Made by a program: the position numbers and the translations under genes. Shown here one piece after another: positions 3,776 through 21,667 of a stretch of DNA of 22,377 nt (position 1 is the stretch's first letter; each line of letters opens with the position of its first letter). Under the pieces are notes generated by a model, which was not told the origin of the DNA, made no database searches, and was given only the letters and a program-made list of their open reading frames with translations. The stretch covers positions 1 through 22,377 of the forward strand of contig NW_021836927.1 of NCBI RefSeq assembly GCF_006345805.1, read 5' to 3'. The stretch comes from Octopus sinensis. Taxonomy: Eukaryota.

Positions 3776-3829
3776 CTAGTACAGCCGCAAATTGTGGAGA
3801 TATTCACATAGAATATATATATATATATA

Positions 3830-3958
3830 TTATTTTATAGAAGGAGCTTCTACAGGACTAGAACTGTTTCATTCAGATGAAATCTTCAGGAAGCTCTTCT
3901 GAAGATTTCATCTGAATGAAACAGTTCTAGTCCTGTAGAAGCTCCTTCTATAAAATAA
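3830..3958. repeat. Perfect inverted repeat, 60-bp arms, 9-nt loop
   Basis: 3830-3889 is the exact reverse complement of 3899-3958; loop GAAGCTCTT. Confidence 0.97.
3844..3896 (-). ncRNA. Type I hammerhead ribozyme motif (near-canonical)
   Basis: Minus strand reads GAGCUUC-CUGAAGA-U.UUC(AUCU)GAA.U-GAAA-CAG(UUCUAGUC)CUG-UA-GAAGCUC: 7-bp stem I, CUGANGA, stem II, GAAA, 4-bp stem III, GUA cleavage triplet. Only the first stem II pair (U.U) is non-canonical. Confidence 0.8.
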
Positions 3959-4045
3959 ATTACTTTACTCTGCTATGTATTGAGTACCTTATTTACTGTG
4001 GTTAACCCCGACTCAACCCGGGAACTACATATATATATATATATA

Positions 4046-4307
4046 TATAAAATAATATGTTACATTTACTCAATAGTCAAGATAAAACTCTGAATTTCAG
4101 ATGCCGAAGTGGAAATCCACAACACCATCTCGTGGGTCCGCGAGCAGAATTATAATACAGTAATTTCCCTTTATATAACGGTATTTTTTCATAGCGTTTT
4201 TCAGATGGTCAGATTACCGAAGAGATGGTGTTGTGGATTTCCACTTCGGCATCTGAAACTCAGAGTTTTACCTTGACTATTGAGTAAATGTAACATATTA
4301 TTTTATA
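4046..4307. repeat. Inverted repeat, 86-bp arms (84/86 identical), 90-bp spacer
   Basis: 4046-4131 versus reverse complement of 4222-4307, two transitions. Confidence 0.95.
4208..4277 (+). ncRNA. Degenerate type I hammerhead motif
   Basis: GTCAGATTA-CCGAAGA (U4C)-GATG...CATC-T-GAAA-CTC-A-GAG-TT-TTACCTTGAC; palindromic stem III, imperfect stem I. Confidence 0.55.
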
Positions 4308-4383
4308 GATAAATTTCCTCTATTTACATAATATTGAGGTTTCTTTCTTTCTTTTGTTTTTCTTACTTCAACCGTTTTTACCA

Positions 4384-4414
<31 letters not shown>

Positions 4415-4989
4415 TGAAGGGTTCTTTCTCTGTGTTTACTTATCCTGTTTTCCATTTTTTTCTCGTTGTTTACGCATTTAACTCATTTGTTTACGTATTT
4501 CATGTTATGTGCACTGCTGATGATGCCCTGTTCCCATATATGCATGTATATATATATATATATATATATACAAATTGAGATAGGGGTTGTAAATGCAACC
4601 CTCCATGGGATAACATATATCCAATATACTGCTAGTGAAGTACCCAGCAAAGTTAATACATAAATGTTAAGGATTGCGATGCAATCAATTCATTTACTGT
4701 ATTATATGGGCAAAGGTAAAATGATTTACCACAAATTACTAATACAAGATAAGAAAATGGAGAAATACATCTAAATCAAATTCAATAAACACCAATAATA
4801 CTCAATCACATACTTTATTAAACCACCACATAAGAGACTGTAGGGTTAAACATAAAAAAAGCAGACAAATCAGTGTACATAAAGGAATGTACATAAATAA
4901 GTGTACATAAAAGAGTAATGTTGTATAATAAGTAGAATATATATAAAAAAGAGACTATAAATATAAGTAAATATAGATATAAGTATAGA

Positions 4990-5066
4990 TTACATCTTAC
5001 AGCTGTTTCGGCCATGTAGATAAGTATGTCTCATTTTACCAATATTAGCCTTTTGCACAGGAGTAA
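4990..5066 (-). ncRNA. Hammerhead remnant with decayed core
   Basis: Minus strand TTACTCCT-GTGCAAAA-GGCTA...TGGCC-GAAA-CAGCTG-TA-AGATGTAA; stem II and palindromic stem III intact, stem I 6/8 pairs, CUGANGA box corrupted. Confidence 0.45.
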
Positions 5067-5185
5067 ACAAAAGAGACAGAGACAGGCAGAAACAATGGAA
5101 ATGCCCCTTGTATCTGAATACTATGCAAATATTCTTTTAAAATACTTTTCATTCAATTTTTCCAAAATTTAATTGTTTTCCATAC

Positions 5186-5227
5186 TTGCAGTTGAAAAAG
5201 TGTTAATGACCGAAACCAGTACTGAAA
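5186..5227 (+). ncRNA. Minimal hammerhead motif, U3-A8 variant, partly decayed
   Basis: TTGCAG-TTGAAAA-AGTGTTAATGACC-GAAA-CCAG-TA-CTGAAA; stem I 5/6 pairs, stem II weak, stem III one change from the ACCGGT palindrome. Confidence 0.5.
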
Positions 5228-5345
5228 TGTTTATTATAAAAATATTTTAGCATTACTACCTTGAATTTTTTTCCATATATATATCAACTCGTGTGCTCCT
5301 TTTCAACCTTCTACATATACCTATACATATATATATATATATATA

Positions 5346-5392
<47 letters not shown>

Positions 5393-5401
5393 AAAGAGGC
5401 T

Positions 5402-5551
5402 ACAAACATTCTCAAGTCATATACGTTATTATAAAAATATAAAGATTTACATCTGTTTCTTGGATATCCCATACTTTGGGACATCCCAGAAACAGCTGCA
5501 AGACTTCAAATTTTTCTTATAATAATAACGTATATAACTTGAGATGTTTGT
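5402..5551. repeat. Diverged fold-back inverted repeat (about 70-75-bp arms, loop TACTT) with hammerhead 3' half
   Basis: ACAAACATTCTCAAGTCATATACGTTATTAT...CTGTTTCTTGGATATCCCA pairs with TGGGACATCCCAGAAACAG...ATAATAACGTATATAACTTGAGATGTTTGT; contains GAAACAGCTGCA. Confidence 0.85.
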
Positions 5552-5727
5552 CTTGCCTTAGCATCTGTTGTCCTCTTTAGCAAAAATATATCCGCCATAT
5601 CGGAAATCTACAATGGTTCCATAACTCCCGTCTCAGCTATGACCTTGGAGCCCTGGAAATCCGTTAGAGCACTTGCCCAGCGTACCTAGTCGTTTAGATT
5701 ACCTGTGAACTAAACCCCCATGTTTTG

Positions 5728-5776
<49 letters not shown>

Positions 5777-5790
5777 ATATATGTATATAT

Positions 5791-5996
5791 ACTCTTTTTC
5801 TTGTTTCAGTCATTTGACTGCGGCCATGCTGGAGCACCGCCTTTAGTCGAGCAAATCAACCCCGGGACTTATACTTTGTAAGCCCAGTACTTATTCTATC
5901 GGTCTCTTTTGCCGAACCGCTAAGTTACGGGGACGTAAACACACCAGCATCGGTTGTCAAGCAATGCTAGGGGCACAAACACAGACACACAAACAT

Positions 5997-6054
<58 letters not shown>

Positions 6055-6220
6055 GTATACATATATACGACAGGCTTCTTTCAGTTTCCGTCTACCAAAT
6101 CCATTCACAAGGCATTGGTCAGTCCGGGGCTATAGCAGAAGACACTTGTCCAAGGTGCCACGCAGTGGGACTGAACCCGGAACCATGTGGTTGGTAAGCA
6201 AGCTACTTACCACACAGCCA
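5791..6220 (-). mobile_element. SINE family B copy, slightly 5'-truncated, inserted in (TA)n
   Basis: Collinear with the other family B copies; lacks the first about 10 nt of the head. Confidence 0.93.
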
Positions 6221-6626: not shown

Positions 6627-6708
6627 CACACGAGCACGCACACACACACACACACACCCTCACATATATATATATACATAAGTATGTATATGTATATATA
6701 TATATATA

Positions 6709-6879
6709 GGCGCAGGAGTGGCTGTGTGGTAAGTAGCTTGCTTACCAACCACATGGTTCCGGGTTCAGTCCCACTGCGTGGCACCTTGGGCAAGTGTCTT
6801 CTACTATAGCCTCGGGCCGACCAAAGCCTTCTGAGTGGATTTGGTAGACGGAAACTGAAAGAAGCCTGTCGTATATATG

Positions 6880-6910
<31 letters not shown>

Positions 6911-7128
6911 TGTGAATGTTTGTGTGTCTGTGTTTGTCCCCCTAGCATTGTTTGACAATCGATGCTGGTGTGTTTATGTCTCCGTCACTTAGCGGTTCGG
7001 CAAAAGAGACTGATAAAATAAGTACTGGGCTTACAAAGAATAAGTCCCGGGGTCGAGTTGCTCGACTAAAGGCGGTGCTCCAGCATGGCCGCAGTCAACT
7101 GACCGAAACAAGTAAAAGAGTAAAAGAG
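6709..7128 (+). mobile_element. Full-length SINE family B copy
   Basis: GGCGCAGGAGTGGCTGTGTGG...GGTTCAGTCCC head; internal (TA)n(TG)n; tail AGTAAAAGAGTAAAAGAG; sits within a TA microsatellite. Confidence 0.95.
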
Positions 7129-13764: not shown

Positions 13765-14615
13765 AAAGACTTGCAAGTAAATTTGGAAAGCAGAAACTGA
13801 AAGAAACCCATAGAATATGAGCTGGCAGAATCGTTAGCACCTCGGGCAAAATGCTTACCGGTATTTTGTCTGCCGCTACGTTCTGAGTTCAAATTCCGCC
13901 GAGGTCGACTTTGCCTTTCATCCTTTCGGGGTCGATAAACAAAGTACCAGTTTCGCATTGGGGTCGATATAATCGACTTAATCCTTTTGTCTGTTCCTGT
14001 TTGTCCCCTCTGTGTTTAGCCCCTTGTAGGCAATAAAGAAATATATATACGTGTGGGTGTGCACGCGTGTGTGTGTGTGTGCGTGTGTGCGCGCGTGTGT
14101 GAGTGTATGTGTATTGTGTGTGTGTATTGTATGTGTGTGTGTATTCTGCGCGTATGTGTTTGCATTGTGTGTGTATGTGTGTGCTTATGTGTGTGTGTAT
14201 TATGCGTGTGTATGTGTGAATGTGTATGTATATCGTGTGTGTATTGTATGTGCGTATGTGTGTGTATTATGCATGTGCATGTGTGGATGTGAGTGTATGT
14301 ATGTGTGTATGTCTATTGTGTGTGTGTATTGTGTGTATTGTGTCTATATGTGTTTGTATTGTATGTGTGTATGTGTGTATGTTGTGTGAGTGTGTGCGCG
14401 CGCGCCTTCATGCCGTTTTTGTCACCGACCAATACTTGGCAACCGGTCTAGGTTTGTTTACGGCTCCGTAACTTAGCGTTTCATCAGAAGACACAGATAG
14501 AATAAGTATTTGTCTAAAAGGGAAAATACTGTGTACAATTCGTTCAATCAAATGCCCTTTATGATGCTTGCTCCAGCATGGCCTCAGTCTTATGACTGAA
14601 ACAAATAAATGATAA
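13765..14615 (+). mobile_element. Old SINE family B relative, host of a family D insertion, with about 360-bp degenerate (TG)n
   Basis: AAATTTGGAAAGCAGAAACTGAAAGAAACCC before the insertion; CCGTAACTTAGCG...GCTCCAGCATGGCCTCAGTCTTATGACTGAAACAA after the (TG)n. Confidence 0.75.
13819..14043 (+). mobile_element. tRNA-derived SINE, family D (possible Meta/MESC-type core)
   Basis: GAGCTGGCAGAATCGTTAG (A box), GAGTTCAAATTCC (B box), GCCTTTCATCCTTTCGGGGTCGATAAA...AGTACCAG core; matches 15942-16180 and 19915-20152. Confidence 0.92.
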
Positions 14616-14671: not shown

Positions 14672-14950
14672 CCCTTTCTACTAAAGGCACAAGGCCTGAA
14701 ATTTTGAGGGACGGGGCAAGTCGATTATATCGACTCCAGTGCGTAACTGGTACTTATTTAATCCACTCCGAAAGGATGAAAGGCAAAATCGACCTCGGTG
14801 GAATTTGAACTCAGAACAGACGAAATACCTATTTTTTTTATTACCCACAAGGGGCTAAACACAGGACAGACAAACGGATTAAGTCGATTATACCGACCCC
14901 AGTACGTAACTGGTACCTATGTAATCGACCCTGAAAGGATGAAAGCAAAG
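14672..14950 (-). mobile_element. Two abutting partial family D SINEs with different 3' tails
   Basis: 14672-14829 (tail CTTTCTACTAAAGGCACAAGGCC) joined at AATACC to 14825-14950 (tail ATACCTATTT..ACCCACAAGGGGC). Confidence 0.85.
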
Positions 14951-15335
14951 GTGTGACTGTGTGGTAAGTAGCTTGCTAACCAGCCACATGGTTCCGGTTT
15001 CAGTCCCACTGCGTGGCATCTTGGGCAAGTGTCTTCTGCTATAGCCTCGGGCCGACCAAAACCTTGTGAGTGGATTTGGTAGACAGAAACTGAAAGAAGC
15101 CTGTCGTATATATGTATATATATATATATATATGTATATGTGTGTGTATGTGTTTGTGTGTCTGTGTTTGTCCCCCTAAGTGACCGATGTGTCACTTAGC
15201 GGTTCGGCAAAAGAGACCGATTGAATAAGTACTGGGCTTACAAAGAATAAGTCCCGGGGTCGATTTGCTCGACTAAAGGCGGTGCTCCAGCATGGCCGCA
15301 GTCAAATGACTGAAACAAGTAAAAGAGTAAAAGAG
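14951..15335 (+). mobile_element. SINE family B copy truncating a family D copy
   Basis: Collinear with 6709-7128, small internal deletion near 15180-15192, tail AGTAAAAGAGTAAAAGAG. Confidence 0.93.
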
Positions 15336-15529
15336 AAAATATATATATATAATCGGTTGTAGCTCATCTACAAAGTATGAGGCCTAGTACCTATGTCAGA
15401 AACCATTGCTCAACATTTCAAACGCTGCTGGGACCTGTGACAGTAACATTGCTGTGCCGAATATACTTCCAGTGCAAATCTCGCTTGAGTCAGATTCGCT
15501 TTTCAACTTCTTCGCGCGTTGATAAAATA

Positions 15530-19914: not shown

Positions 19915-20152
19915 ATACCTATTTCTTTATTGCCCACAAGGGGCTAAACACAGAAGGGACAAACAAGGACAGACATAGGTATTAAGTCGATTACATCGAC
20001 CCCAGTTCGTAACTGGTACTTAATTTATCGACCCCGAAAGGATGAAAGGCAAAGTCGACCTCGGCGGAATTTGAACTCAGAACGTAACGGCAGAAGAAAT
20101 ACCGCTAAGTATTTCGCCCGGCGTGCTAAAGTTTCTGCCAGTTCGCCGCCTT
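19915..20152 (-). mobile_element. Full-length family D SINE
   Basis: Near-identical to 15942-16180; no clear TSD seen. Confidence 0.92.
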
Positions 20153-20394
20153 AAAGCCGGGTGAAATACCGTTCTCTTTGTTCTTATAGTTGTTCTGTAG
20201 TTCTTTTTGTTGCTGTTATTGTTACTGATGCTACTGTTGATGTTGTTGTTTTTGATATCTTTATTGCTACCGTTATCATTATTTATAAACACGTGGTTGC
20301 ACTACAAACTACGAGGGAAGTTTGTAGCTTTAAGTGTGTTGAAGAATTTATATGAAAGAGAGAGAAGGATACATATATTTCTTTATGATTTTTT

Positions 20395-20830
20395 CCTTTT
20401 TTTTTTTTTGCTTTCATTTTCGTGAAATACAATTCTTAAAATCATCGGTAGTCGGGAACAGCAATATTTCTCTCTTTTTTTAATTCATTAGTACGGCATA
20501 ACTCGGAACTTTAAATTACTTAACTTAAATTCATTTCTTCTCTTTTTTTTTCTAACAGTAGAGAAAATGCACGCAGAGAGATTCGCGTTAGTGTTGTCAT
20601 AATTTTTTGCTTTTGTCCTTTTATTTTTTCATTGTTTTTGTTCTTTTTTGTTTTCATTTTCATCGTTAATTAGGAATAGCACTATTTTGCCCCTCTTTTA
20701 GATTCGTCAGCACGACATAACTTGTAACATGAAATTAAGTTAAATTCATTACTTTTTTCTTTTCCTTCTAACAGTAGAGAAAAGGGATATAGAGGGGTTC
20801 TCCTTAGTATTGTGGTTATTTTTATTTAGC
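20395..20830. repeat. Old diverged tandem duplication (unit about 220 bp)
   Basis: CATCGG...GGAACAGCAATATTT...GCATAACT...TTAAATTCATT...TTCTAACAGTAGAGAAAA...TTAGTGTTGT (20443-20605) recurs with substitutions at 20661-20822. Confidence 0.75.
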
Positions 20831-21095
20831 CCAGGGTAAACCACGATCCAGCAGCTCTATCACTACTTAGTTTTGTTGCGCAAGCTAAATAATAGTGTTT
20901 TAAGATTCAGTCAAATCAGAAATGGCAGTGTCGATGACTAATTTGCAGATTCTCTTTGATAGAAGAAAAACACCAAGAACTCGATATGCTAATACCGGAC
21001 AAAAGCTCATAAATATTTGTTATACGGAGAGGACACTTCAAGAGATTCCCAGGGGTCAGATGATAGCGTTAAATAGGGCACATTTATCTCTACAT

Positions 21096-21323
21096 TTTTA
21101 CTGTTTTATTTGTTTCAGTCATTTGACTGCGGCCATGAGGGAGCACCGCCTTTAGTCGAGCAAATAGACTCCAGGACTTATTTTTTGTAAGCCTAGTACT
21201 TATTCTATCGGTCACTTTTGCCGAACCGCTAAGTTACGAGAACGTAAACACACCAGCATCGGTTGTCAAGCGATCTTGTGGGGACAAACACAGACACACA
21301 AACACACACAAACACACACACAC

Positions 21324-21373
<50 letters not shown>

Positions 21374-21574
21374 AACACACACATATATATATATATATAT
21401 ACACATATATACGACAAGATTCTTTCAGTTTCCGTCTAGCAAATCCACTCACAAGGCTTTGGTCGGCCCGAGGATATAGTAGAAGACACTTGCCCAAGGT
21501 GCCACGCAGTGGGACTGAACCCAGAACCATGTGGTTGATAAGCAAGCTACTTACCACACAGCCACTCCTGCATC
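21096..21574 (-). mobile_element. SINE family B copy
   Basis: Collinear with the other copies; long internal (CA)n(TA)n. Confidence 0.93.
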
Positions 21575-21667
21575 TACTGTCCATGAAAAATGTTTTCTCA
21601 GTTTCTGTCAGGTAAATTCCACACACAGCCACCACAGTTTTTCATGCTGCTGTTGTTTCTGTTGCAA

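Follow-up and report, generated by a model that had tools for sequence, protein, structure and literature searches.

The 22,377-nucleotide contig NW_021836927.1 of Octopus sinensis (assembly GCF_006345805.1), analysed as a whole and referred to as the window, contains between positions 3813 and 5790 six mutually unrelated units, U1 to U6, which lie between (TA)n tracts and all stem from high-copy families. Very probably, this array consists of six 5'-truncated 3' ends of retroelements in TA microsatellites, five of which are derived from Penelope-like elements (PLEs). The remaining unit, U3, would come from a repeat devoid of an open reading frame (ORF) that carries the blocks of a hammerhead ribozyme in the order S-G-C, is predicted to self-cleave, and is likely mobilised by a PLE. 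The U3 family itself is probably an animal retrozyme based on a type-SGC (double-pseudoknot) hammerhead, present in thousands of copies of ORF-less units of about 750 nt and spread by a TA-targeting Penelope-like enzyme. What was read directly from the 2.72-Gb genome that was searched, of which the window is one entire 22-kb contig, comprises the membership of the units in families, the reverse transcriptase (RT) and GIY-YIG endonuclease frames upstream of U1, U2, U4, U5, and U6, the flanking TA, the inverted arms and tails, and, for the U3 family, the covariation and the structure of the monomer.

In the window, U3 starts within the CTGATGA box of its family, and only ATGA and the 3' strand of stem II are left of the type-SGC hammerhead (4414-4421). 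In fuller copies, three hammerhead blocks are found just 5' of this break in a non-circularly permuted order. Block S comprises the 5' strand of stem III, the cleavage site, and a stem I strand; block G comprises a stem II strand, GAAA, and a stem III strand; and block C comprises a stem I strand, CUGAUGA, and a stem II strand. The S-G linker measures 2-6 nt. On inspection, the motif could not be read as a type I, II, or III hammerhead, since GAAA does not follow the core and a stem I hairpin is absent. Exact motif patterns gave 1,908 matches for subfamilies A/C, 121 for B/D, and 67 and 15 for two further patterns, with no match for any of the reversed controls. At least four subfamilies, A to D, are present, of whose copies 37 of 45, 30 of 41, 11 of 18, and 2 of 2, respectively, were retained for analysis; 20 of 126 copies were not assigned to a subfamily. 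Stem III reads CTCAT/ATGAG in A, CGCGT/ACGCG in B, and CGTAT/ATACG in C, and stem I reads TTGTCG/CGACAA, TTGTCC/GGACAA, and TTGTTG/CAACAA, respectively. Subfamily B was fetched with a truncated query devoid of block S; its S strands turned out to complement the G and C strands of the same subfamily, with a GUC site. In subfamily C, ATACG at 15.x is accompanied by CGTAT at 16.x in 10 of 15 loci and by TGTAT in two. The core letters are conserved to 84-100% per column, H17 being A or C according to the subfamily (G in 2 of 37 A copies), and in all subfamilies CUGAUGA, GAAA, U16.1-A15.1, and H17 are placed exactly at the ends of covarying helices. Natural intact motifs are found, for instance, at L294:1465-1550 (plus strand), L349, L327, L457, and L211.

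For the analysis of covariation, 88 matches from 79 chosen sources were aligned with a structure-blind profile model, since MAFFT misregistered the subfamilies. In this alignment 92.1% of the cells pair, compared with 85.2% after shuffling, and the covariation score is 0.198 versus 0.109 for shuffles, none of 500 of which reached it; sliding the partners gives 0.056 at most. Between 12 and 35 double changes each are found at six pairs; of these pairs, three belong to stem III, two to stem I, and one to an extra helix, in which the sequence 5' of block S pairs with the G-C linker. Copies of the U3 family are predicted from these features to self-cleave.

The U3-family monomer has a length of about 660-760 bp and is arranged head to tail, with periods of 664-857 bp (same-strand second junction within 900 nt). 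Sixty loci were chosen by their tail junction, including the two query loci and two loci of one array; at 42 of them a same-strand hammerhead follows 200-900 nt further on, and at the remaining 18 the monomer can be followed for 100-450 nt and then stops, except for one with a nearer ribozyme. Inverted copies are present at 14 of the 60 loci, and most loci hold one or two monomers. Two monomers that were examined contain no ATG frame longer than 115 amino acids, and their GC content is 35-38%. Walking upstream of U3 leads back to the tail of the element itself. Within upstream flanks of 1.5 kb (5 kb for 20 loci), coding sequence in sense was detected with Hydra and Neptune queries at only 1 of 132 loci of the U3-family groups (9 + 20 + 29 + 29 + 15 + 30). 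The proposal, made in an earlier sequence-only reading of the window, that the units are short non-autonomous mini-elements is thus retained for U3 only, the unit rated weakest there, and for a different reason: its family is ORF-less and tandem, and the ribozyme would be of type SGC and not a minimal type I hammerhead. At three loci (L267:1431-1455, L317:1785-1810, and L298) the 3' end at CCAAG is followed by TAAGT, which matches a 5' splice site, and a pyrimidine-rich stretch with AG precedes the ribozyme; possibly, these signals represent a retained PLE-type intron.

The units U1, U2, U4, U5, and U6 are identified by homology as 5'-truncated 3' ends of autonomous PLEs, that is, as known biology. 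All five extend into RT and GIY-YIG frames, so that the idea of short non-autonomous mini-elements fails for them, by a condition that the sequence-only reading had itself named. A U2 locus carried an endonuclease-like frame, and a search with that frame (150 matches scored out of 20,856 candidates) yielded open frames of up to 717 amino acids. All of the 25 loci chosen by the U2 endonuclease or by frame length carry U2, and full copies, such as L092 with the arrangement pseudo-long terminal repeat (pLTR), 717 amino acids, pLTR, encode RT and GIY-YIG in a single frame. The motifs RWK, DKT, CxCX5C, and CxxC..E..N..CxH are conserved across 120 aligned proteins, RWK and DKT to 78-100% in relatives. 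The RWK/DKT region was recovered for the parents of U2 and U4 (DKT in the latter), not for those of U1 and U6; the CxCX5C linker is present in all four, with no CCHH, and CxxC..E..N..CxH in U1, U2, and U6, U4 having CxxC..E with the end out of frame. A structure model of the U2 parent (predicted local distance difference test score of 93) has telomerase as its top fold match (E 2.9e-9), and its atlas look-alikes carry the labels RVT_1/HTH_animal and GIY-YIG at low member shares. A sequence search of the PDB with the 120-protein profile was blank, and HHalign against the RT of a long interspersed element gave a probability of 3.8 only. Hydra-like frames in sense lie upstream of U1 at 4 of 20 loci (13 of 20 reached the unit), of U4 at 8 of 20, and of U6 at 4 of 20. 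Independent loci have 2,954, 3,540, and 2,556 bp in common, respectively, each including the CxCX5C linker; RT and GIY-YIG were recognised in these three by homology to the U2 parent, in broken frames. For U5, frames comprising thumb, linker, and YIG were found at 2 of 11 loci, with 1,363 bp in common, and the relatives (L062/L129 and L070/L130) possess a decayed Cys linker followed by CxxC-YIG..H..H, in thumb-to-endonuclease frames that are all decayed. The name Neptune for the U5 clade is in part our assumption and weaker than the Hydra calls, Nematis being an alternative.

The family hammerheads of U1, U2, U4, and U6 are of type I and located in the pLTR, and family copies pass a type I descriptor. 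Type I features of PLE hammerheads, including the U3-A8 variant of the core that is found in U5, have been published (PMC4209133). CCGAAGA or CCGATGA, i.e., C for U at core position 4, is the core sequence in the majority of copies of U2 and U4 and in some of those of U6, and stem II of the U4 family extends over about 98 nt and contains an internal helix of 11 bp. The short U2 subfamily measures about 2.6 kb, and copies of U1, U4, and U6 exceed 3 kb; parents of U1 and U4 (L119, L169, and L224) have low-complexity 3' untranslated regions (UTRs) of 1.8-2.3 kb, and in the U4 and U6 proteins RT and endonuclease are separated by long inserts rich in Asn and Thr. One of the Hydra subfamilies akin to U2 (L091-L095) is young; it comprises dozens of equal-scoring endonuclease copies with open 717-amino acid frames and was likely active recently. 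Downstream of a U3 copy, at L263, a palindromic hammerhead of a U2-related family with the canonical CTGATGA core was encountered.

All units are multi-copy, as the sequence-only reading would require, with 695 (U1), 1177 (U2), 2100 (U3), 4524 (U4, whose query also contained U5), 2133 (U5), and 2272 (U6) first-look candidates genome-wide, 40 of which were scored per unit. The assumed Penelope link and TA landing pad are supported as well: (TA)3 or longer occurs within 30 nt of the 3' end in 67 of 82 family copies, compared with 14% of random 34-mers from the same loci, and 54 of 62 copies of the U1, U2, U4, and U6 families combined are flanked by TA. Their 5' ends are variable and often inverted, the inverted arm beginning at a fixed distance from the 3' end of about 70 nt in U1 and U2, 170 nt in U4, 140 nt in U6, and 35 nt in U5. 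This pattern of truncation, inversion, and tail has been published for PLEs (PMC8557442, PMC11167929). Among 29 U1 copies obtained with a tail-only query, nine run upstream, ten have a junction in stem I, five another inversion, and five a plain truncation. The ten stem I junctions coincide with one self-complementary AGCT (3890-3898 in the window), a fold-back hotspot, and this inversion often leaves two complete hammerheads on opposite strands. The U1 palindrome as a fixed mini-element was rejected by the tail-only query; the initial query had contained the junction.

The layout of the array is given in Table 1. The six units, the six (TA)n tracts, and the three fold-back palindromes (U1, U2, and U6) described earlier are present, and so is the reported lack of RT and GIY-YIG coding sequence, tblastn with Hydra and Neptune queries being blank in the window. 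The arms of U1 (3830-3889/3899-3958, 60 bp) are exact complements, those of U2 (4039-4137/4216-4314) are 94% identical, and the fold-back of U6 spans about 5402-5551. U4 and U5, of different families and opposite strands, abut 5' to 5' at 5054/5056 with one base and no TA tract between them. The junction resembles a usual inverted 5' arm, except that the partner is another family; a template switch or a later deletion may have been its origin. Elsewhere in the window, dispersed 200-bp repeats in both orientations (5790-6220, 6707-7126, 13819-14048, 14949-15346, 19915-20144, and 21082-21576) are presumably octopus SINE-type (short interspersed) elements.

Table 1. Units, (TA)n tracts, and hammerhead remains of the array, in order of position in the window
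Feature	Position	Strand	Description
(TA)n target tract	3814-3829		
U1	3830-4028	+	3' end of Hydra-type PLE; inverted 5' arm 3830-3889, sense copy from ~3890, 70-nt tail 3959-4028
Sole complete type I hammerhead of the window	3844-3896	-	In U1 inverted arm; stems I/II/III 7/3/4 bp, CTGAAGA, GUA site
U1 sense hammerhead	3897-3939	+	Core intact; stem I down to 2 bp at inversion junction
(TA)n tract	4030-4049		
U2	4039-4384	+	3' pLTR of Hydra-clade PLE; inverted arm 4039-4137, tail 4315-4384
U2 hammerhead	4208-4277	+	CCGAAGA 4217-4223, GAAA 4255-4258, GUU site at 4267
(TA)n tract	4385-4408 or 4385-4413		
U3	4414-4546	+	5'-truncated piece of ORF-less, tandem-forming repeat of ~750 bp
(TA)n tract	4547-4570		Position matches microsatellite inside U3 monomer
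U4	4571-5054	-	3' end of Hydra-type PLE, long 3' UTR
U5	5056-5322	+	3' end of Neptune-like PLE
(TA)n tract	5328-5389 or 5326-5390		
U6	5391-5733	+	3' end of older Hydra-type PLE; inverted arm from ~5402
(TA)n tract	5734-5765		

The window's own ribozyme copies are nearly all dead. Hammerhead parts had been listed at five sites, and parts are found at each of them, but only the minus-strand motif in the inverted arm of U1 is complete, the others being cut or decayed. It is also the single pass of a relaxed type I descriptor on 3813-5790, the other sites failing; 5 of 300 dinucleotide shuffles of the same region gave one or more passes. Up to an E value of 5, Rfam, which had been proposed as a check, returned no hammerhead for the window, and it returned none for six family loci. 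In U2 (4217-4267), two substitutions break stem I, of which 28 of 29 family copies retain at least 5 bp. The U4 hammerhead is cut within stem II and devoid of its CCGAAGA box, so that GAAAC-AGCT-GUA (4998-5009) is what remains. In U5, stems II and III have decayed around the variant core (TTGAAAA at 5192-5198, GAAA at 5212-5215). In U6, the inverted arm took the place of the CUGAUGA box, the triplet at the cleavage position is GCA, and GAAACAGCTGCA at 5489-5500 is without U16.1. The lone CTGATGA of U3 (4517-4523) noted earlier is not a core but a private mutation shared by none of nine family copies, the real family box being the one cut at 4414. Outside the array, a weak hammerhead-like match with a 2-bp stem I (20372-20450, minus strand) is probably due to chance.

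Several observations weigh against the interpretation given at the outset. Stem II of the U3-family motif has 3-4 bp, 92% paired and mostly G-C and G-U, and a double change at none of four pairs. The double changes do not amount to 141 events but go back to about three subfamily splits; the total of 8 pairs that show one is no better than in shuffles (299 of 500); and two of the six pairs, 16.2/15.2 and 1.5/2.5, are explainable by CpG decay on both strands. With one CpG-type pair removed from the comparison of A and B, the four changes would form two partner pairs by chance with a probability of 0.009, before pairing is demanded. The search pattern for B/D preset part of block S. The prediction of a fifth subfamily with C at 15.2 was not borne out, as the 67 copies keep A at 16.2 (31 examined); since the T form has 1,908 matches, these copies (3%) are read as sporadic mutations. 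Copies in which the core and stems I and III are all whole number only 3 of 37 in A, 9 of 30 in B, 7 of 11 in C, and 1 of 2 in D. A partner PLE with the same pLTR or tail as U3 was not found, none of the PLE frames receives a label from Pfam, and the assignments to the Hydra and Neptune clades are based on motifs and homology.

The weakness of stem II and the divergence of the U3 family, which at about 10% may be long dead, would also suit the explanation that U3, like the other five units, is simply the 3' end of an autonomous PLE, its monomer being a deletion remnant whose helices are ordinary structure of an RNA with no working ribozyme. Locus L212, where an in-sense Hydra-like RT piece is joined to sequence upstream of U3, seemed to offer such a Hydra parent, but it was rejected, as 0 of 24 other copies of that piece have U3 downstream. 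Given also the single coding flank among the 132 loci and the placement of the core letters exactly at the ends of covarying helices in every subfamily, this explanation is improbable. Only slightly less improbable is that the ribozyme is real but adopts a classical topology between monomers or between two RNA molecules, S-G-C being the linear order in the DNA only. The copies are indeed arranged head to tail, action as dimers has been published for PLE and retrozyme hammerheads (PMC4209133, PMC7229834), and since pairing in cis and in trans look alike to covariation, folding within and between monomers is not distinguished by it. A classical fold would, however, need pairs across about 700 nt, the short S-G linker is like the typical 3 nt of type SGC, and single-strand folding gave stem III and the extra helix within one monomer in two of four copies tried.

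A functional multi-ribozyme cassette, or cooperating uncatalogued mini-elements, would account for the density of the array, which at six families within 1.9 kb is extreme; among the 82 loci of 3 kb that were sampled, seven hold one other family and none holds two. This idea is hardly credible any longer and is already largely refuted by the presence of only one complete hammerhead, the distribution of the units over both strands, their different ages (82-99% identity to relatives), the coding parents of five of them, and the absence of the combination from every other fetched locus. The array, put forward earlier as an undescribed system, is not a system; taken by itself it is ordinary and adds only a few more Hydra and Neptune families.

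For the preferred reading of independent insertions, the following scenario can be proposed. According to published PLE work, the GIY-YIG endonuclease would nick AT-rich DNA, reverse transcription from two internal priming sites near the 3' end would produce the tail, and early termination or fold-back would lead to truncation and inversion. As the TA flanks left by an insertion can serve as a target once more, families would accumulate, and the array would have resulted from repeated targeting of the same TA tract; U4 probably inserted in the internal microsatellite of U3 (4547-4570). In the U3 family, the SGC ribozyme would cut tandem transcripts once per monomer after GUC, AUA, GUA, or AUC, giving units of about 750 nt, which might be circularised as in retrozymes (PMC7229834) and copied in trans by a TA-targeting PLE. 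Such copying would agree with a proposed origin of animal retrozymes from PLEs (preprint 10.64898/2026.07.22.740005).

If this is correct, the U3 family would for the first time place a type-SGC ribozyme, which escaped both Rfam and type I descriptors, in the genome of a known organism. The family is of significance because type-SGC hammerheads had neither a known host nor a genomic context (Eckert 2023, PMC10085705). Its occurrence beside PLEs with type I hammerheads would make testable how the non-circular permutation originated, possibly via PLE inversion and duplication, and whether retrozymes depend on a ribozyme of type I. It would also imply that genome surveys with type I/III descriptors and Rfam overlook whole ribozyme families.

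Among known systems, the closest counterparts of U1, U2, U4, and U6 are PLEs of the Hydra clade, whose C-terminal GIY-YIG, RWK, DKT, CxCX5C, and CxxC/CxH marks, (TA)n targeting, and octopus member Hydra-1_Obim have been published (Craig et al. 2021, PMC8557442). The four families share with them the protein motifs, (TA)n targets, inverted 5' copies, tails, and type I hammerhead, and the GAA-ACTC-A-GAGT-T of U2 is identical to the entry for Penelope-3_HM. Since their hammerheads differ from that listed for Hydra-1_Obim, they represent further families. Members of the Hydra clade are generally shorter than 3 kb, and nearly all of them insert in (TA)n (PMC8557442). In contrast, U1, U4, and U6 exceed this length owing to their UTRs or inserts, tails reach up to 70-170 nt, and U2, U4, and part of U6 read CCGANGA. 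Neptune elements are marked by a CX2-5CxxC linker and a CCHH GIY-YIG. As in the Neptune clade, the relatives of U5 have a Cys-rich linker ahead of a CxxC-YIG endonuclease with two later His residues and TA flanks, but the U5 core is the U3-A8 variant, noted in Schistosoma by Cervera 2014.

By its sequence the U3 family is likely a new variant of the animal retrozyme. Like metazoan non-LTR (long terminal repeat) retrozymes (Cervera and de la Pena 2020, PMC7229834; Li et al. 2026, preprint 10.64898/2026.07.22.740005), it is ORF-less, head to tail, of low GC content (35-38%), equipped with one hammerhead per monomer, and found beside PLEs. It differs from them in a monomer of about 660-760 bp versus 150-450 bp, in type SGC instead of type I (PMC7229834), and in the prevalence of one or two monomers with PLE-style truncation, inversion, and tail. 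No animal SGC hammerhead was reported in the literature searched, outside of which lay subscription journals, Repbase, and Dfam, so that the repeat may already have a name with its ribozyme unnoticed; a giant squid paper only counts Rfam hammerhead_1 matches. The published type-SGC hammerheads, HRIMA-1 and its variants, came from metatranscriptomes, not from the genome of any known organism (Eckert et al. 2023, PMC10085705). With these the U3 family has in common the block order, the full core, the short S-G linker, and covarying stems I and III. It departs from them in its weaker stem II, in the extra helix between the sequence 5' of block S and the G-C linker, and in that inspection by eye did not reveal a helix between the free sides of stems I and II, but above all in being encoded in the genome of an animal, in thousands of copies of a retroelement-like repeat.

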